From positions 97 through 64,096 of the forward strand of contig JAFBAN010000248.1 in the NCBI GenBank assembly GCA_019247775.1: 64,000 nt of DNA. Reading direction: 5' to 3'. Under the pieces are notes generated by a model. It was not told where the DNA came from. It searched no databases and worked only from the letters and a program-made list of their open reading frames with translations. A program made the translations under genes and the position numbers. Positions 3-63,799 of this stretch are shown here, one piece after another. The stretch is from Chitinophagaceae bacterium (GTDB lineage: Bacteria > Bacteroidota > Bacteroidia > Chitinophagales > Chitinophagaceae). Numbering within the stretch: the first letter of the stretch is position 1; every line of letters begins with the position of its first letter.

Positions 3-1121
3 AGGCAGGAAAATCGCCAGGCCGAAGCGCCGCGCCAGCAGCCGCAGAGCAACGACAATGCTCAACGGGGCGGATGGCAGCGTCAGCAACAACCTCAGCA
101 GCCACAAGCGCAGGCACAGCCGCAGGCAAATGAAGGCCGCCAGCGTCAATGGCAGCAGCAGGCGCAGGAAGCGCAGCGTGCCAACGAAGGTCGTCAGCGC
201 GAGTGGCAGCAGCAGGCACAAAACCAGCAGCGTGCACAGGAAGCACAACGCGCTAATGAAAACCGTCAGCGCGAATGGCAGCAGCAGGCACAGAACCAGC
301 AGCGTGCACAGGAAGCGCAACGCGCCAATGAAAACCGCCAGCGCGAATGGCAGCAGCAACAACAGCGTTCGCAGGAAATACAGCGTACCAATGAGCGTAG
401 CCGCGAAGCCCAGCGTGCTGTCGAAAGCCGTCAGCGTGAGTGGCAGCAGCGAGACCAGGTAACCATGAACCGCGACAGGAACAATGTTTTCAACAACCGT
501 CAATACCAGCAAAGAAACCAGGAGGTTTACCGCCAGAGCAATGGCAGGTATGCCAACAGCAAGCTGAGGGTATATGCCAATAACTACCAGCCGCGTTATA
601 ACCGCGCTCCGATAAGCTGGAAGGGTCGTAATTACTATACTTTCAACACGTATAGCTACCATCCCTACAGGGCTTACAACTATGGTTCGTTCTTTCACCC
701 TTATGGTTATTTCAGGGCTTCACTTGGTTCACTGGCAGTGAGGATCATATTAGGCAACAGGCCTTACTGGTACGACCAGGGTGTATACTATGAGCCGTAC
801 AATAACGGATACCAGGTAGTACAGGCTCCAGAGGGCGCTTATATTCCGCAACTGCCTTACGGCGCCAGCAGTTTTGAGCTGGAAGGATATACCTACTACT
901 ATTTCGCCGGTGTATTCTATGCGGCTGATGAGCGGGGCTACTATGTGATCCCAGCTCCTCCGGGCGCTATCGTTTACGATCTGCCTGAAGGCGCAAGCGA
1001 GTTCAACGTAAATGGAATGACTTACCTCCAGTATGGTGATGCTGTGTTCCAGCCGATCACACTCAATGGCAGGTATGCTTACGAAGTGGTTGAACTGGAA
1101 GATGACTATCAGAATTATTAA
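3..1121 (+). CDS. DUF6515-like protein with Gln/Arg-rich repetitive N-terminal region (5' partial)
   Basis: Frame 3 is open from position 3 (RQENRQAEAPRQQPQ...RQREWQQQ...) straight into the track ORF 465..1121. The C-terminal domain has Tyr-rich YYYFAGVFY and GYxVxxAPxG repeats. Confidence 0.75.
   Translation, partial: RQENRQAEAPRQQPQSNDNAQRGGWQRQQQPQQPQAQAQPQANEGRQRQWQQQAQEAQRANEGRQREWQQQAQNQQRAQEAQRANENRQREWQQQAQNQQRAQEAQRANENRQREWQQQQQRSQEIQRTNERSREAQRAVESRQREWQQRDQVTMNRDRNNVFNNRQYQQRNQEVYRQSNGRYANSKLRVYANNYQPRYNRAPISWKGRNYYTFNTYSYHPYRAYNYGSFFHPYGYFRASLGSLAVRIILGNRPYWYDQGVYYEPYNNGYQVVQAPEGAYIPQLPYGASSFELEGYTYYYFAGVFYAADERGYYVIPAPPGAIVYDLPEGASEFNVNGMTYLQYGDAVFQPITLNGRYAYEVVELEDDYQNY
162..378 (+). 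repeat. Coding tandem repeat, about 72 bp (24 aa) unit
   Basis: The unit AQEAQRANENRQREWQQQAQNQQR is present in 2 near-perfect copies plus degenerate flanking copies. Confidence 0.85.
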
Positions 1122-12101: not shown

Positions 12102-12198
12102 CCCTTTGCGAACCTTGCGTTCCTTTGCGGACTTTGCGTTACTGCCGGGTTCAGGATTTTGTAGCGCAGGGAACACAGGGAACCGCAGGGAACGCAGG
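12102..12198. repeat. ctttgcg/cgcaggg-unit palindromic element
   Basis: About four 9-10 nt units inverted against four cgcagggaac units. Relatives at 18356 and 21807. Confidence 0.8.
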
Positions 12199-15389: not shown

Positions 15390-15595
15390 TTTTGCCTTCT
15401 TTGCTCCTATCCACTCTTAGCGAAACGGTTTAGAGTGCAGCACCCGGTTTCAATAAAAGAAGAACGAAGAAAAAAAGATAAGAAAGTTCCTTTTTTTCTT
15501 CGTTCTTCTTCTATTGCGCAGCTGATGGTTTCGCTAAGAGGTTAAAAGAGCGAAGGAGGGTAGCAGGAGATACATCTGTTCCCTACTCCTTACTC
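15390..15595. repeat. Mosaic palindromic element (modules A and B)
   Basis: Module A ttcaataaaagaagaacgaag...cttcgttcttcttctattg lies between B arms ctcttagcgaaac and gtttcgctaagag. Confidence 0.8.
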
Positions 15596-18318: not shown

Positions 18319-18355
18319 GGTTAAAATTAATGAAATTCAGGGGGACAAATTATTT

Positions 18356-18468
18356 TCCTGCGTGCCCTGCGATCCTTTGCGTTCCCTGCGTTACAAATCC
18401 GCAAGTTTCAGTATAGCAAAGATCGCAAAGGATCGCAGGGAACGCAAAGAACCGCAGGGGGCGCAGGG
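18356..18468. repeat. ctttgcg/cgcaggg-unit palindromic element
   Basis: ccctgcgatcctttgcgttccctgcgttac...atcgcaaaggatcgcagggaacgcaaag. Confidence 0.85.
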
Positions 18469-21771: not shown

Positions 21772-21806
21772 GGCGCAAATGTAGCCATTCCCTGGCGTTG
21801 CTCCTC

Positions 21807-21911
21807 CCCGCGTTCCCTGCGGTCCTTTGCGTTCTTTGCGTTCTTTGCGATACTTTAGAGTTGCGGCAGTAGTAACGCAGGGAACGCAAAGGACCGCAGG
21901 GAACGCAGGGG
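21807..21911. repeat. ctttgcg/cgcaggg-unit palindromic element
   Basis: cgcgttccctgcggtcctttgcgttc is inverted against gaacgcaaaggaccgcagggaacgc, with near-perfect arms. Confidence 0.85.
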
Positions 21912-33675: not shown

Positions 33676-34455
33676 CTATGATCGCTGTTTCGACTTGAAT
33701 TTAGAGATGAACGTTTTGCTGTGCTCGCTCAGTATGAGACGCCCGCTGATGGCGGCCCTTTCCTTTAACAGGTCATCCCAATGTTCTGTTCCCTTCCACA
33801 AGACTTTCTTGATCTCGTGCATGGCGGCGGCGCTGGAATGTGAAAGATTGGTGCTGAGCCGGTCGATGGCGTCGTCCACAGCGTCAATATCGCTATACAC
33901 TTCTGCATACAGTCCTTTTCGTTTCGCCCAGTCTGCAGAACGCCACATAGTGGCATCGATGGTAAGTTGAGAGAATGCGGATAGGCCCAGTTTACGTTCA
34001 ACGGCCGGCCCAACCACGAATGGGCCGATGCCTACCGCCAGTTCACTAAGTTTGATGTCTGCACCATCAACGGCGATGGCGTAATCGGCGGCGGCGGCCA
34101 GTCCTACCCCGCCCCCAACACATTTGCCCTGGATCCGGGCGATAATGAACTGCGGGGTTTTTCGCATGGCGTTGATCACTTCAGCAAACCCGGAGAAGAA
34201 ATGGATGCCCTGGGCTTCTGTACTGATTGCTGCCAGTTCGTCGAAGGATGCACCGGAGCAGAATACTTTATCGCCGCAGGATTTCAGGATGATCACTTTG
34301 GTATCGCGGTTCAGGCCTTCGCTGTGGATGTCTTTGGCAAGTGTATGCAGCAATTCGCCTGGTAATGAATTGCTCTGCGGATGATAGAACTCTATCGTAG
34401 CAATCCCATGCTCACGTTCTACTTTTACATGTCCTTCTTTGATCTCTTCTATCAT
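33676..34455 (-). CDS. Enoyl-CoA hydratase/isomerase family protein
   Basis: FCSGASF, VGGGVGL and LSELAVGIGP. Confidence 0.9.
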   Translation of the reverse strand: MIEEIKEGHVKVEREHGIATIEFYHPQSNSLPGELLHTLAKDIHSEGLNRDTKVIILKSCGDKVFCSGASFDELAAISTEAQGIHFFSGFAEVINAMRKTPQFIIARIQGKCVGGGVGLAAAADYAIAVDGADIKLSELAVGIGPFVVGPAVERKLGLSAFSQLTIDATMWRSADWAKRKGLYAEVYSDIDAVDDAIDRLSTNLSHSSAAAMHEIKKVLWKGTEHWDDLLKERAAISGRLILSEHSKTFISKFKSKQRS

Positions 34456-34853
34456 ACTAACTTTCTTGAATGGTTATTAAATCGCCTGTAAAAACCGTCT
34501 TTTAATAAGTTGGCATTAAAATTAACTAATACTCCGTCTCTAAAACCTGCCAGCTTAAGATAAGCGTGTAGTTGTTTAAAATGAATGGGAGCTACAGCTT
34601 CCACCGATTTTATCTCTACTACAACCCTATCGTTAACCAACAGATCGAGCCTGAAACCAATACCGAATTTAATATAATCGTACACCACCGGTATCGGCAC
34701 TTGTCTCTTTACAACAAATGCACGCTTGGTCAACTCATGTATAAGAACTTCTTCATAAACGGATTCATATAGACCCGGACCCAGCTCCGCATGTACTTTG
34801 ATGCAGGAATCAAGTACACTTGCGATTATGGCGTTCACTGTTGTTTGACTCAT
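34452..34853 (-). CDS. GxxExxY protein (PD-(D/E)XK nuclease family)
   Basis: GPGLYESVY, FRLDLLV, VEIKS and QL..YLKL. Visibly more AT-rich than its neighbours. Confidence 0.93.
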   Translation of the reverse strand: MSQTTVNAIIASVLDSCIKVHAELGPGLYESVYEEVLIHELTKRAFVVKRQVPIPVVYDYIKFGIGFRLDLLVNDRVVVEIKSVEAVAPIHFKQLHAYLKLAGFRDGVLVNFNANLLKDGFYRRFNNHSRKLV

Positions 34854-34854
34854 C

Positions 34855-35000
34855 GTTTCAATAAAAGAAAGCCAAAAGAAAAAGAGAAAAGTATCGACTA
34901 TAGTTCAGACGTTTTTAGGTATCTGCCGCACTCTAATGCAGTTTTTTCACCTGTTGAACCTCTTCTTACTCTTCTTTTCTTCGTTTTTCTTTTATTGAAC
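34855..35000. repeat. Palindromic module A adjoining the GxxExxY gene
   Basis: Perfect 14-bp terminal inverted repeat ttcaataaaagaaa (34857) and tttcttttattgaa (34986). Contains the linker ccgcactcta. Confidence 0.85.
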
Positions 35001-37040
35001 CTTCCGCGCCACCATTGTAAGAATGGTTGCCACGCCTACGATCTCGTCTGTTTCATCCATCATTTCCACGAGCCATTTTACGATACCACGCGGGATATCG
35101 GTTGGCTCTTTTTGTTCCTGCCCTGTTTTTTCCTTGCAGGTGAACCGCACATAGAATTCGGCGCCGGGATAAACCGGTTTTGTAAACCGCAGTTCATCGA
35201 TACCGTAATTCAGCAGCACCGGGTTTTTCTCATAGCTGTCCACAAATAATCCTGCCGCTGCACTGATGAGAAAATAACCATGCGCTACCTGCCGCTCAAA
35301 CATGGTACCTGCAAAATCTGTTCCCGTGAGATGGGCGTAGAAATGATCCCCACTCAGGTCTGCAAAGCGGTTGATGTCTTCGGCGGTGATCAGTCTTTTT
35401 TCCGTTACCAGCTGATCCCCGATCTCCAGTTCCTCGAAATATTTTTTGAACGGGTGGATGCCGTCGGTACGCCTTGTAGCCCCGGGCTGGAACACGTTGC
35501 TCACCGCCGTGATCATATCCGGCGAGCCCTGGATAGCCACCCGCTGCATATAATGTTTCACGCCGCGGATGCCGCCCATTTCCTCGCCACCGCCTGCGCG
35601 GCCAGGGCCCCCATGCACCAATAAAGGCAGGGGCGATCCGTGTCCGGTACTTTCTTTGGCACACTGGTTATTGAGTATGAGGATGCGGCCATGATAGGTG
35701 CCTGCTCCGAGTACATATTTTTTGGCGACGGCCGGATCTGCCGTTACCACCGAACTCACCAGCGAGCCCTTACCCATTTTGGCCAGGGTGATGGCTTCTT
35801 CCGTGGTGGAATAAGGCATCAAGGTGGAAACGGGCCCGAAAGCTTCCACTTCATGCACTTCCCGGCTGGTGTGCGGCTGTTCATTCAGCAGCAGGATGGG
35901 GCTCATGAAAGCGCCTCTCGCCGCATCGGCATCGATCAGTTCAACACTGTCGAGCGAGCCGTAGATGATCTGCGAGGAAGCCAGTAATTTCTGCACCTGT
36001 GCTTTTACTTCCTTGCGTTGCGATTCGCCTGCCAGTGAACCCATCCGCACTTTTTCATTGAGTGGATTTCCGATGGTGGTTTGGGCCAATGCTTTCCCCA
36101 ATGCAATGCCGATATCTTTCAGTTTATTTTCAGGAACGAAAATGCGGCGGATAGCGGTGCACTTTTGTCCGCATTTCGTGGTCATTTCTTTCCGCACTTC
36201 TTTGATGAATATATCCCATTCCGGCATGCCGGGAGTTACGTCTTCACCCAATACAATGCAGTTGAGGGAATCGGCTTCCATGGTGAAAGGAACGTTCTGT
36301 TCCAGGATATTTTTGCCCGATTTAAGCATGAGTCCGGTGGAAGCCGAACCTGTAAAGCTCACTACATCCTGTGCAGTCACATGATCGAGCAGGTCGCCCG
36401 CGCTTCCACAGATAAGTTGCAGCGCACCCTTCGGCAGAATGCCTGAAGCGTCTATCCGCCGTACTACCGATTCGGTAAGAAAAGAGGTAATGGTAGCCGG
36501 CTTCACTACCGCAGGCACGCCGGCCAGCAGGTTAACTGCAATTTTTTCCAGCATACCCCATACCGGGAAATTGAATGCATTGATATGCACGGCAACCCCT
36601 TCTTTGGGAATGAGCAGGTGATGGCCCATAAAGGTGTTTGCCTTTCCCAGCTGATGATGTTCGCCATCGAGGCAGTAAGGCGTATCCGGAAATTTCCGGC
36701 GCAGCGAAGCATAGGAAAACAGGTTGCCGATACCGCCTTCGATATCCACCCAGCTGTCTGCCCTGGTAGCGCCGGTGCGATAACTGATCTGGTAAAATTC
36801 TTCAAGATGCTCCCGCAGGTAGAGGGCAAGTGAACGCAGCATCAGTCCGCGCTCGTGAAAACTCATCTTCCGCAGAGCGGGATTGCCCGTTTCGCGGGCG
36901 TAGTTGAGAATGGCAGCAAAATCCAGCCCTTTGGTAGAAGCCCTCGCAACAGGTTCGCCTGTGATAGCATTGAAAAGGACCTGCCCGTCGCCGTCACCTT
37001 TAATCCAGCGGCCGGTTACATAATTTTCGGTACTAAGCAT
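34992..37040 (-). CDS. paaZ: Bifunctional oxepin-CoA hydrolase/aldehyde dehydrogenase PaaZ
   Basis: INAFNFP, FTGSA, EADSLN, GQKCTAIRR, EAFGPV, HGSPLP and C-terminal MaoC domain SGDHFYAH. -7 box at 37045-37052. Confidence 0.95.
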   Translation of the reverse strand: MLSTENYVTGRWIKGDGDGQVLFNAITGEPVARASTKGLDFAAILNYARETGNPALRKMSFHERGLMLRSLALYLREHLEEFYQISYRTGATRADSWVDIEGGIGNLFSYASLRRKFPDTPYCLDGEHHQLGKANTFMGHHLLIPKEGVAVHINAFNFPVWGMLEKIAVNLLAGVPAVVKPATITSFLTESVVRRIDASGILPKGALQLICGSAGDLLDHVTAQDVVSFTGSASTGLMLKSGKNILEQNVPFTMEADSLNCIVLGEDVTPGMPEWDIFIKEVRKEMTTKCGQKCTAIRRIFVPENKLKDIGIALGKALAQTTIGNPLNEKVRMGSLAGESQRKEVKAQVQKLLASSQIIYGSLDSVELIDADAARGAFMSPILLLNEQPHTSREVHEVEAFGPVSTLMPYSTTEEAITLAKMGKGSLVSSVVTADPAVAKKYVLGAGTYHGRILILNNQCAKESTGHGSPLPLLVHGGPGRAGGGEEMGGIRGVKHYMQRVAIQGSPDMITAVSNVFQPGATRRTDGIHPFKKYFEELEIGDQLVTEKRLITAEDINRFADLSGDHFYAHLTGTDFAGTMFERQVAHGYFLISAAAGLFVDSYEKNPVLLNYGIDELRFTKPVYPGAEFYVRFTCKEKTGQEQKEPTDIPRGIVKWLVEMMDETDEIVGVATILTMVARKVQ

Positions 37041-39228: not shown

Positions 39229-39314
39229 GCTTCGCTAAGAGCTTAAGAAGAAAAGAAGGGTTACAGGAGGACGACTCCTATACTCCTTTGCTCTTATCCA
39301 CTCTTAGCAAAACG
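39229..39314. repeat. Palindromic module B
   Basis: cttcgctaagag...ctcttagcaaaac. The right arm lies inside the 3' end of the DUF5690-like gene. Confidence 0.8.
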
Positions 39315-41976: not shown

Positions 41977-42152
41977 CTTTCTTCTTTACTTTTTCCCTTC
42001 GTTTTTCTTTTATTGAACTGCGAGCCTGCACTTTGATGCATTCTGTCTACGGGTGCGCCGTTAAATGTTTCGCTAAGAGATCAAGGAGAAAAAGAGGTAA
42101 CAGGAGGATTTTCTCCTAAGCTCCTTCGCTCTTATCCCCTCCTAGCGAAACT
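41977..42152. repeat. Mosaic palindromic element (half A plus B)
   Basis: cttcgtttttcttttattgaac followed by gtttcgctaagag...ctcctagcgaaac. Confidence 0.8.
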
Positions 42153-63547: not shown

Positions 63548-63581
63548 GCAGAATTCAAAGCTTCGATGATTCGGGGCGAGG

Positions 63582-63799
63582 TTCAATAGAAAAGTAACGA
63601 AGTAAAAAAGAAAAGAAGTTGTACTCTTTTTTACTTCGTTCTTCTTTTATTGATACCCCCGCGGACCGGAGCAGCGATAAGTTTCCCAGCTTTAGAGCGG
63701 GCAGCCCAAGGGTTTCGCTAAGAGCCAAGGAGAAAAAGAGGGTAGCAGGAGGAGATTTCTTATTGGCTCCTTTGCTCCTATCCCCTCTTAGCGAAACCC
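63582..63799. repeat. Mosaic palindromic element (A plus B)
   Basis: ttcaatagaaaag...cttcttttattga, then gggtttcgctaagag...ctcttagcgaaaccc (15-bp perfect inverted repeat). Confidence 0.85.

Follow-up and report, generated by a model that had tools for sequence, protein, structure and literature searches.

The GxxExxY gene located between paaZ and a crotonase gene in the window (the whole stretch of 64,000 nucleotides that was analyzed) is probably the stranded cargo, or remnant, of a hairpin cassette, and we give this reading of its history and function, taken as a whole, a probability of roughly 0.6. Such a cassette would begin with an arm of tandem purine-rich words, followed by a GxxExxY nuclease gene and then by a second arm, the reverse complement of the upstream one. 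As shown by comparison of the sequences of relatives, three steps would lead to the present arrangement. A cassette with arms of the module B type (GCTAAGAG-AAAAG... / ...CTTTT-CTCTTAGC) would have been placed exactly between paaZ and the crotonase gene; in the ancestry of this genus, a module A hairpin, complete with both of its arms, would then have nested downstream of the first B arm, ahead of the ATG; and the loss of both B arms would have left the paaZ stop with module A, the GxxExxY gene, and an ATGA overlap with the crotonase gene. The gene is probably no longer mobile as a cassette. Its product may be an active RecB/Cas4-like nuclease that recognizes or processes hairpins made of its cognate word repeats (module B, perhaps A/B mosaics) in trans and so maintains or spreads gene-less copies, a functional proposal that we advance tentatively, at somewhat below even odds.

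Organization of the paaZ/crotonase junction

The layout given in a preliminary description of this DNA (a palindrome with the paaZ stop in its far arm, a gene starting 1-3 nt away, and an ATGA overlap with the following gene) was confirmed throughout. The TAA stop of paaZ (34994-34992) sits within the first arm of the module A palindrome, and the GxxExxY ATG lies 3 nt (ACG) past the end of the second arm (Table 1). The paaZ gene was identified by its match to TIGR02278 (890.9 bits) and by the Pfam domains Aldedh and MaoC_dehydratas. The GC content of the GxxExxY gene was 0.391, compared with 0.528 for paaZ and 0.519 for the crotonase gene, and its GC3 was 0.35 vs 0.58 in both neighbors. Together with the PF13366 and TIGR04256 matches described below, these values (39% vs 52-53%) agree with the AT-richer PD-(D/E)XK gene reported previously. 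The cassette reading accounts for an alien gene within a conserved catabolic operon and, for annotation purposes, indicates that a cassette terminus is able to provide the stop codon of the upstream gene.

Table 1. Positions of the features discussed in the text (window coordinates).
Feature	Position	Strand	Remarks
paaZ	34992..37040	minus	682 aa; bifunctional oxepin-CoA hydrolase / aldehyde dehydrogenase
Module A, whole palindrome	34857..34999	minus	143 nt; includes the paaZ stop
Module A 5' arm	34959..34999	minus	TTCAATAAAAGAAAAACGAAGAAAAGAAGAGTAAGAAGAGG; purine-rich (mRNA sense); inverted-repeat search and RNA fold
Module A loop	34893..34958	minus	66 nt; inner stem-loop by RNA fold
Module A 3' arm	34857..34892	minus	ACTTTTCTCTTTTTCTTTTGGCTTTCTTTTATTGAA; pyrimidine-rich; inverted-repeat search and RNA fold
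GxxExxY / PDDEXK_3 gene	34452..34853	minus	133 aa ORF
ATGA	34452..34455	minus	GxxExxY TGA stop and crotonase ATG start overlap
Crotonase/enoyl-CoA hydratase family gene	33676..34455	minus	259 aa
Further module A copies	15446-15520; 63580-63660		
B arms bracketing a module A copy	15395-15559		
Gene-less module B palindrome	39229..39313	.	GCTAAGAG...CTCTTAGC; cognate arm type of the window gene's lineage
Further gene-less module B copies	42067-42151; 63712-63798		

The GxxExxY and crotonase genes are presumably translationally coupled through the ATGA overlap. Because the hairpin is not followed by a terminator, the GxxExxY gene is also likely to be read through from paaZ, and in the paaZ-crotonase interval no terminator-like site was found on the minus strand. 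This copy of module A was rejected as an intrinsic (Rho-independent) terminator, having an AT-rich stem (GC 0.33) followed by AACGAUGAG with no U-run.

As RNA, the module A palindrome had a folding energy of -48.2 kcal/mol (z = -4.45), and none of 200 shuffled sequences was equally stable. Its loop contains TAGAGTGCGGCAG at 34935-34923, and a related motif turns up again in loops or linkers of other palindrome families; the orthologous module A loop of locus L131 has CTGCGGCAGATACCTAA in common with it. The loops of other module A copies are 12-13 nt long or carry a nested module B. The earlier characterization of module A as a dispersed palindrome was upheld: the 4.04-Mb genome contains about 10 complete module A copies together with 33 arm termini, and among 81 genera the strict pattern was present only in this genome (G000).

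The junction in related genomes

In six other genera, GCTAAGAG.../...CTCTTAGC arms lie on either side of a GxxExxY gene at the paaZ/crotonase junction. In these B-type cassettes, a TAA in the outer terminus serves as the paaZ stop, and the crotonase ATG lies 0-9 nt past the other terminus. The adjacency of paaZ and the hydratase gene in relatives, raised as a check beforehand, was found in 15 genera, with neither a GxxExxY gene nor B-type arms between them, and one of these (L027) has a short, unrelated CGCAAGG-word hairpin at the junction. The crotonase gene starts 12-97 nt after paaZ in about 15 other genera (253-263 nt in two of them). The closer homologues of the window's gene (79%, 70%, and 68% identity) are all at this junction, and the GxxExxY genes of the paaZ site form one clade (98, starred).

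Locus L132 represents an intermediate state, in which a B arm is followed by a complete module A hairpin, the GxxExxY gene, and a second B arm. Loci L131 and L133 match the arrangement of the window, the former with the same ATGA overlap. The window lacks the downstream B arm that relatives carry at the GxxExxY/crotonase junction. The statement that only one side shows a repeat is therefore true of the window, but the relatives are armed on both sides, and the one-sided state is, by this comparison of sequences, a derived one. The nesting in L132 also led us to reject module A as the terminal repeat belonging to the GxxExxY gene. Because of this nesting and of the restriction of the strict module A pattern to G000, the module A copy beside the gene is best explained as a secondary insertion followed by the loss of the true arms. 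Of the interpretation put forward in the preliminary description, the tie between GxxExxY genes and palindromes thus stands, but the designation of module A as the partner repeat of the gene does not. A degenerate downstream A arm within TTCAAGAAAGTTAG, at the 3' end of the GxxExxY gene, is conceivable; TTCAAGAAAGTTAG resembles the ancestral paaZ tail and junction at least as well (compare L008, AGACAGTTAGTATG).

The same gene lineage with the same termini (GTTTCGTTAAGAG.../...CTCTTAGCGAAAC) was found between purD and guaA in genome G068, and therefore the arm-gene-arm unit seems to move as a whole. The cassettes have terminal inverted repeats; the GxxExxY protein has no recognized transposase domain, and no clear target-site duplication was found when filled and empty paaZ/crotonase junctions were compared. 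The recurrence of the cassette at this junction in many genera would be explained by homing, in which the nuclease cuts the empty junction or hairpin of genomes or alleles without the cassette and recombinational repair copies the arm-gene-arm unit into it. PD-(D/E)XK homing endonucleases, such as I-Ssp6803I, are known, the empty sites are scar-free, and the pattern of presence and absence requires at least six changes on the paaZ tree, at least four of them forced by starred branches. The cassette gene tree and the paaZ tree also disagree (AU p = 0.015 for L003 placed with the G000 clade), although this group was chosen after the tree was seen and the proteins are short. Nevertheless, the B lineage also occurs at the unrelated purD/guaA junction, within a genome the paralogues are without exception old and divergent, and the closest folds are those of exonucleases rather than site-specific enzymes, and we consider homing improbable.

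Features of the GxxExxY protein

The protein encoded by the stranded gene matched TIGR04256 (GxxExxY) with 126.5 bits (cut-off 35), residues 10-124 covering profile positions 3-114 of 116, and PF13366 (PDDEXK_3) with 122.8 bits (cut-off 22; E = 1.2e-35). The latter was the sole Pfam match, and no match to Y1_Tnp or HUH was obtained. In an alignment of 54 homologues, H21, G25, G27, E30, Y33, E34, D70, E80, K82, Q94, and Y98 were invariant, as was the motif set E..D..ExK..QxxxY. From this motif pattern, D70, E80, K82, E30/E34, Q94, and Y98 are predicted to have catalytic roles. The AF2 model (pLDDT 92) showed the PD-(D/E)XK fold with the element order H-H-E-E-E-H-E-H-E. Its closest solved structures were Cas4 SSO0001, lambda exonuclease, and MGME1, all weak matches (E ~1e-3, TM 0.45-0.54), and its structural relatives are mostly end-processing exonucleases and not site-specific enzymes. 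A solved structure with sequence-level similarity was not found in the PDB. As judged from sequence and model, the 133-aa protein is a minimal PD-(D/E)XK nuclease of the RecB/Cas4-like branch with a predicted intact active site.

The window's gene is the sole member, in this genome, of a lineage with cognate arms of the module B type. After arm loss, its dN/dS was about 0.07-0.17, compared with 0.03-0.05 for the neighboring genes, which indicates purifying selection, these figures being rough since dS is saturated (above 1). GxxExxY/PDDEXK_3 genes were present in 56 of 81 Chitinophagaceae genera and in 114 of 201 Bacteroidota genomes sampled. The function of the family was given as 'Unknown' by Steczkiewicz et al. 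(2012). Our literature searches for GxxExxY, PDDEXK_3, PF13366, and TIGR04256 returned incidental mentions only, and no paper tying the family to repeats was found.

GxxExxY genes between inverted arms

Among 57 GxxExxY genes of other Chitinophagaceae, 33 (58%) were enclosed by inverted tandem-word arms at a score of at least 14, whereas only 8 of 247 neighboring genes (3%) were (Mann-Whitney p = 1e-18). In a phylum-wide sample, 13 of 26 GxxExxY genes and 4 of 60 others were enclosed. The enrichment of flanking palindromes, proposed as a check in the preliminary description, was thus found at both levels. In this genome, inverted arms or a full palindrome lie no more than about 100 nt from each of the six GxxExxY genes (the flanks of two paralogues, C134 and C137, were read by eye). 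These counts bear on whether the window's gene is simply an ordinary, horizontally acquired small gene beside one of the many hairpins of its genome. The genome is indeed palindrome-rich, with about 660 long inverted repeats or roughly one per 6 kb, and ordinary genes (rpsQ, nuoK, and a ROK kinase gene) are also bracketed by arms of one family. The difference in enclosure, the six of six within this genome, and the arrangement kept in orthologous loci argue against a chance neighborhood, which we regard as very improbable.

The similarity of the arms tracked the identity of the GxxExxY proteins (Mantel r = 0.42, p <= 0.0005). Across 81 genera, the GxxExxY copy number was correlated with the number of cognate-word arrays (Spearman 0.66), a relation that had been suggested as a check for gene presence and repeat copy number. 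The correlation was 0.51 when the four-helix-bundle gene count was controlled for, and the reverse partial correlation was 0.006. Genome G030 has 10 CRCANRG arrays, with GxxExxY genes absent. Four-helix-bundle genes were enclosed as often as GxxExxY genes (29 of 40) but by other arm words. Because the four-helix-bundle proteins are non-nucleases with the same architecture, the arms appear to need no nuclease in cis. Eighteen of the 33 cassettes directly adjoin the stop of an upstream gene that has the same orientation.

Gene-less palindromes and the proposed function

Six of the 81 genera have an intact B-lineage gene, and these genes are clearly set apart by score (at least 189 bits, the next being 168). 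Gene-less B palindromes occurred in five of these six genera but in only 1 of the 75 without such a gene (Fisher p = 1.4e-6); G019 has a B-lineage gene and no strict gene-less B copy. For module B, the check on gene presence and repeats suggested in the preliminary description was thus positive at the lineage level. The G000 genome has 17 strict gene-less B copies at different loci and one B-lineage gene only. These copies are old, with a mean pairwise identity of 66% and one near-identical pair, which is in tandem. The co-occurrence of gene and gene-less copies would also arise were the gene-less hairpins mere decay products of cassettes. Simple internal deletion was rejected as a common origin for all gene-less hairpins, failing for the CGCAGGG and CGCAGAG families, in which the arms are reversed compared with gene-bearing cassettes. 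In the commonest gene-less family of G000 (CCCTGCG...loop...CGCAGGG), the arm order is opposite to that of C241, the gene-bearing cassette with the same words.

It is also conceivable that the word arms are the real unit and act at the RNA level in the manner of 23S rRNA intervening sequences, RNase III cutting the long stem, freeing the cargo mRNA, and insulating the host operon. The protein would then have an unrelated role (repair, defense, or addiction), and the hairpins without a gene would have arisen by decay or be terminator-like elements in their own right. Several observations are in line with this explanation: the architecture resembles that of ORF-bearing intervening sequences (IVSs), including the tandem heptamers in the stem, and ACAGAT-word arms were found here; the four-helix-bundle cargo shares the design with no nuclease; the cassettes occupy the spacers of host operons and run in the same direction as these; and the window's gene is still under purifying selection once its own arms are lost. 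However, the arm vocabulary is specific to the cargo and follows its phylogeny, which host RNase III would not require, and the gene-less B palindromes are confined to genomes with a B-lineage gene, as given above. PADLOC, moreover, gave no match for the GxxExxY gene as a defense gene. Taken together, we consider a purely RNA-level unit with an unrelated cargo unlikely.

A trans-acting role of the GxxExxY protein comparable to that of RAYTs is plausible, and the protein of the stranded cassette would then maintain or spread roughly 20-40 gene-less copies in the genome, as RAYTs do for REPs. This can be extended to a speculative and rather doubtful general proposal, in which a RecB/Cas4-type nuclease, the GxxExxY protein, would act in trans as the enzyme of a REP/RAYT-like system. 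Each lineage would read tandem-word arms of its own type and would maintain, homogenize, or spread the cassette and the gene-less hairpins. The window's gene would be a 'domesticated master', armless and still servicing module B (and A/B mosaic) palindromes, and a second set of arm words would be read in parallel by non-nucleases, the four-helix-bundle (IVS-type) proteins.

The large, uncharacterized GxxExxY/PDDEXK_3 family gains a named candidate DNA substrate that can be tested, because the genes are borne between arms, the words co-vary with the protein, the gene-less hairpins are limited to the matching lineage, and the armless copy is under purifying selection. These results may also explain how the many intergenic, word-periodic palindromes of Bacteroidota arose and would tie them to the long-unexplained ORF-bearing rRNA IVSs.

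Similarity to known systems

The cassettes resemble the ORF-bearing IVSs of 23S rRNA in Leptospira and Coxiella burnetii (S23p / PF05635), in which a small ORF lies in the loop of a long inverted-repeat stem. The IVS of Coxiella has GACAGAT repeats and is excised by RNase III (PMC4990558). Shared features include tandem short repeats (heptamers) in the stem near the start codon, a GC content below that of the host, a sporadic distribution, and copies decaying to ORF-less hairpins, and the layout of ORF-bearing IVSs is also that of the PF05635 genes in this genome and in the family. An ORF-enclosing stem of the IVS kind was found in the orthologous loci and in 58% of the family, whereas the stem in the window lies wholly upstream of the ORF. 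Unlike IVSs, the GxxExxY elements carry a PD-(D/E)XK nuclease instead of a four-helix bundle, lie in the spacer of a protein-coding operon and not in an rRNA helix, and have the arm words CRCANRG or A[AG]GAG with a period of 8-10 and the termini TTTAACCAC or GCTAAGAG. In the IVS literature that we found, the cargo was a four-helix bundle only.

As in REP/RAYT (REPIN-RAYT) systems, there is about one gene lineage per repeat family, with many gene-less copies and with repeats only where the lineage is present. The RAYT-like flanking of a single-copy nuclease gene by inverted members of a dispersed palindrome family is seen in relatives, as B arms on both sides, whereas the window itself has only the nested module A upstream. 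The GxxExxY family is not a RAYT family, as it has no HUH/Y1 domain and has another, RecB/Cas4-like PD-(D/E)XK fold. The arms are also arrays of tandem words, whereas a REP is one short hairpin bearing a conserved tetranucleotide.

Gene-less elements with terminal inverted repeats that share their ends with a gene-bearing one are reminiscent of MITEs and their autonomous parents or of enterobacterial BIME mosaics, as are the intergenic nesting and tandem mosaics (A in B, B in A, A-B-A). In contrast to MITEs, the cassettes have no recognized transposase and no target-site duplication was seen in them, and some gene-less families here have an arm order that is the reverse of the gene-bearing form. 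With Cas4, RecB, and lambda-exonuclease nucleases, the GxxExxY protein shares the fold and the E..D..ExK..QxxxY motif set; unlike these nucleases, it is about 130 aa long and has neither Fe-S cluster cysteines nor partner domains. Additionally, the genome contains at least one real Y1 (IS200-type) gene, C185, with a Y1_Tnp match and its own flanking inverted repeats.

GxxExxY gene between paaZ and a crotonase-family gene

On the minus strand of the window, paaZ is followed by a palindrome, a GxxExxY gene, and a crotonase-family gene (see table). The preliminary description of this arrangement was right in every detail. The first palindrome arm contains the paaZ TAA, 3 nt separate the second arm from the GxxExxY ATG, and the crotonase ATG is overlapped by the GxxExxY TGA (ATGA). 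The GC content of the GxxExxY gene was 0.39 vs 0.52-0.53 in its neighbors. As RNA, the palindrome was predicted to fold at -48.2 kcal/mol (z = -4.45); a terminator was ruled out because no U-run follows it. Transcription from paaZ probably reads through into the GxxExxY gene, and translation of the crotonase gene is probably coupled to that of GxxExxY. At the start of the window, the coding region of a Q/A/E-rich repeat protein contains a 72-nt tandem repeat (approximately five copies) rich in CAGCAG/CAGGC.

Features of the window, its genome (contigs C) and loci of other Chitinophagaceae genera (G)
Feature	Location	Strand	Remarks
paaZ	window 34992-37040	minus	TIGR02278, 891 bits
Palindrome, 143 nt (module A)	window, arms 34999-34959 and 34892-34857		between paaZ and GxxExxY gene
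GxxExxY gene, 133 aa	window 34452-34853	minus	PF13366 (PDDEXK_3), E = 1.2e-35; TIGR04256, 126.5 bits
Crotonase-family gene	window 33676-34455	minus	
CGCAGGG-family palindromes	window 12105-12198, 18346-18468, 21806-21910		
TAGAG(T)(T)GC(G/A)GCAG	window 34923-34935, 15431-15447, 21856-21870		first site in module A loop
72-nt tandem repeat	window 99-461		
PF05635 genes	C74:17079-17573, C89:5117-5680, C118:13589-14069, C180:1160-1685		between tandem-word inverted arms
DUF559 (Vsr-like endonuclease) gene	C82:9770-10223		between long inverted repeats of own kind
IS200/Y1-type (RAYT-like) ORF	C185:6478-7118		between long inverted repeats of own kind
ORF, IS200-like by eye	C243:63-802		between long inverted repeats
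Ordinary genes	rpsQ C87:3341-3801; nuoK C245:28320-28722; ROK kinase C124:4977-6025; C157:26340-27529		bracketed by one-family inverted arms
Terminus-supplied stops	paaZ loci L009, L014, L017, L019, L029; L167:1440-1470; window 34992-34994		L167, purD/guaA of G068
GxxExxY cassette	C241:29872-30381		
Second GxxExxY gene of G047	C1:1585528-1585836		
CACAGAG arrays	L032 (G034:C7:6260-7600)		beside GxxExxY gene

Inverted arms around GxxExxY genes

The genome (G000; 4.04 Mb, 50% GC, with the window on contig C5) contained six GxxExxY genes. Those on C134, C188, C241, and C23 were tightly enclosed by two inverted arms of 35-40 nt each, the upstream arm ending 0-80 nt before the ATG and the downstream arm beginning 0-6 nt past the stop or inside it, and the genes on C137 and in the window had a complete palindrome directly upstream. 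The arm family was distinct at each locus, and all consisted of tandem short words (CACATAGG, CGCAAAG, CGCAGGG, CGCAGAG, and CACAGAG). Gene-less copies of every arm type were present elsewhere in the genome (each arm gave 1 to 35 hits in blastn).

From further genera of the family, 60 loci with a GxxExxY gene were sampled, and 57 were scored by the best inverted repeat between the 200 nt upstream and the 200 nt downstream of the gene. A score of at least 14 was found for 33/57 GxxExxY genes vs 8/247 neighboring genes and 3/90 small neighbors (Mann-Whitney p = 1e-18), and a phylum-wide sample gave 13/26 vs 4/60 with unchanged words and termini. The enrichment of flanking palindromes proposed earlier is borne out, and chance proximity of gene and palindromes is excluded. 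The arms were arrays of CRCANRG-type words with a period of 8-10, the purine-rich arm coming first, and their outer termini were TTTAACCAC... and ...GTGGTTAAA; a second GxxExxY protein clade used (N)GATT words and TGTCTGAA termini. These cassettes (upstream arm, gene, and inverted downstream arm) lay directly against the stop of an upstream gene of like orientation in 18/33 cases and against the start of a downstream one in 18/33, and are typically operon-spacer fillers. Lower GC than in the flanks was found for 55/57 GxxExxY genes. Additionally, the outer terminus of a cassette or hairpin can supply the in-frame stop of the upstream host gene (C-TAA-GAG, TTCAA-TAA-AAG, TT-TAA-CCAC). At L032, arrays of CACAGAG words recurred at ~160-nt intervals, at least four times and all in direct orientation, which makes the locus a row of tandem arms and not a simple palindrome.

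A genome-wide inverted-repeat scan of G000 identified other ORFs between arms, namely four PF05635 genes, a DUF559 gene, an IS200/Y1-type ORF on C185, and a second, IS200-like ORF on C243. The PF05635 arm words (TCTGGAG/TTAGGAG, GTCTGTG, GGTTAAA, and CGTGAG) differed from those of GxxExxY arms. Inverted repeats of the C82 and C185 ORFs were ACCCCCCAGCCCCCTGAAGGGGGAG and GCAGTCGCCCGCCTCCAGGCGGGTGAC; the C243 ORF had no match in a Pfam search. The arms bracketing a few ordinary housekeeping genes sometimes formed nested double pairs and may represent either two flanking hairpins or truly split arms.

Arm words specific to the enclosed gene

Four-helix-bundle genes (PF05635/TIGR02436, 23S rRNA intervening sequence (IVS) protein) from the same genomes were arm-enclosed in 29/40, as often as GxxExxY genes. 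Their arms consisted of GCTGCAAG, GGATGTT, AGTTGAT, AAGTTAT, and GAGCTNN words with a period of 6-7, and CRCANRG words never occurred in the arms of these 40 genes. By inspection, word types matched clades on the GxxExxY protein tree, and arm 6-mer similarity rose with protein identity (Mantel Spearman 0.42, p <= 0.0005).

Gene presence and repeat copy number, which the preliminary description had proposed to compare, were correlated: GxxExxY copy number followed the number of three-word CRCANRG arrays in 81 genera (Spearman 0.66, p = 2e-11). With the four-helix-bundle count controlled for, arrays and GxxExxY count had a partial correlation of 0.51; for arrays and four-helix-bundle count, with the GxxExxY count controlled for, it was 0.006. 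The correlation is in part trivial because every gene brings its own arms. Nevertheless, arrays exceeded gene number more than 4-fold in ten genomes, three of them without any GxxExxY gene, and G000 had 151 arrays for its six genes.

History of the paaZ junction

The paaZ loci of 29 other genera showed three states. In 15 genera, paaZ adjoins the crotonase gene, mostly across a 12-97 nt spacer, with no gene and no arms of the second palindrome family (module B). In six genera, a GxxExxY gene lies between the two (G019, G047, G045, and G065; decayed in G014 and G049), within arms GCTAAGAG-AAAAG... and ...CTTTT-CTCTTAGC, and in the rest, paaZ has no crotonase gene beside it. The paaZ TAA lies within the outer terminus of this junction cassette in 5/6 genera, and the crotonase ATG 0-9 nt beyond the other terminus.

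The three closer homologues looked up (79%, 70%, and 68% identity) were all at this junction. In L132, the order is paaZ stop/B arm, complete module A palindrome, gene, B arm, and crotonase ATG, whereas L131 and L133 resemble the window, with module A followed by the gene and no B arms. L132 is the intermediate state, and together with the two loci lacking B arms it shows that module A is a secondary, nested insertion and that this genus has lost the true arms. The window gene belongs to the class of arm-gene-arm cassettes, and its own arms were of module B type. The proposal that module A is the gene's own repeat is not upheld: L132 carries it nested within B arms, and its strict pattern was found in G000 alone among 81 genera. 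A/B nesting was common elsewhere in G000.

In L027 (G040), the paaZ-crotonase spacer contains a 97-nt gene-less CGCAAGG-word hairpin. The 16-nt spacer of L020 (G063) is TAACCAC-TTAGC-TTAGC, which may derive from the termini of a cassette that was lost, leaving them collapsed together. G047 has a second GxxExxY gene ~1.5 kb downstream of its paaZ-site cassette.

Movement of the cassette, and distribution of gene-less module B palindromes

The paaZ-site GxxExxY proteins formed one clade (SH-aLRT 98; 98/94 in a second tree). Presence and absence on the paaZ tree required at least six changes, at least four of them forced by well-supported branches, and the cassette gene tree was in mild conflict with the paaZ tree (AU p = 0.015, for a group named after tree inspection). 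A rival reading is homing of the cassette into empty junctions, with which the repeated changes are consistent. In G068, a gene of the same protein lineage (B-lineage; 50% identity to the G047 gene) sits between purD and guaA within arms GTTTCGTTAAGAG... and ...CTCTTAGCGAAAC, which differ by one base from the termini of module B in G000 (GTTTCGCTAAGAG / CTCTTAGCGAAAC), and the purD stop lies inside the terminus. A B-lineage gene with near-matching termini at this site indicates that arm-gene-arm is the unit that moves. No target-site duplication was seen.

A lineage-specific profile (intact B-lineage 189-220 bits vs <= 168 bits for all other GxxExxY) identified intact B-lineage genes in 6/81 genera (G000, G019, G045, G047, G065, and G068). 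Gene-less module B palindromes (GCTAAGAG N30-60 CTCTTAGC; none with a reversed-pattern control) numbered 17 in G000, three in G068, two in G065, and one each in G045 and G047; G061 had one doubtful match, not word-like, and the other 75 genera had none. The comparison of gene and repeat called for earlier was positive when made with module B, the right repeat (5/6 B-lineage genera vs 1/75 others, Fisher p = 1.4e-6), and carriers are dispersed over the paaZ tree. The 17 copies occupy different loci, with a mean pairwise identity of 66% and two arm variants. Module B is an old, amplified family in G000, and the window gene is its sole resident gene of matching lineage.

Protein conservation and possible function

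An alignment of 54 homologues had 22 invariant positions, including H21, G25, G27, E30, Y33, E34, D70, E80, K82, Q94, and Y98, which we take to be the E..D..ExK..QxxxY pattern of RecB/Cas4/lambda-exonuclease nucleases. The AlphaFold2 model of the 133-aa protein was confident (pLDDT 92, pTM 0.85), and its top PDB fold matches (Cas4 SSO0001, lambda exonuclease, LHK-Exo, MGME1, and splicing endonucleases) were all weak (E 1e-3 to 1e-1, TM ~0.5). No solved structure of a sequence relative was found, and PADLOC gave no hit. The dN/dS of the gene was ~0.07 vs L131 and 0.17 vs L132, and 0.03-0.05 for its neighbors, these ratios being rough as dS was saturated. The predicted active site is intact and constrained, and constraint on the protein persists where it has lost its own arms; the need to keep a frame open for coupled translation would not account for it.

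We consider it possible, at a probability of about 0.3-0.4, that the nuclease would recognize arrays built from its own word type, on which it would act in trans, in the fashion of RAYT on REP. Alternatively, the arms might act at the RNA level, like an IVS, with an unrelated function of the protein; the equally frequent arms around IVS protein genes are consistent with this, and the cargo-specific words and the co-occurrence with gene-less module B speak against it.

CGCAGGG family and shared loop motif

Among the gene-less families of G000, CCCTGCG... loop ...CGCAGGG was the most abundant, with at least 25 full copies. It consists of a pyrimidine arm (CCCTGCGTTCCCTGCGGTCCTTTGCG...GTTAC), a loop (ATAGAGYYGCGGATTT) that is conserved, asymmetric, and present in both orientations, and a purine arm (GTAACGCAGAGAACGCAAAGGACCGCAGGG). 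The arms are ~90% like those of the C241 GxxExxY cassette in reversed order, and the cassette-outer termini (GTAAC) face the loop. The module A copy at the window gene holds a related loop motif (TAGAGTGCGGCAG), and the motif TAGAG(T)(T)GC(G/A)GCAG is shared by the module A loop, the A/B linker, and the CGCAGGG-family loop, which suggests a common functional core outside the arms.
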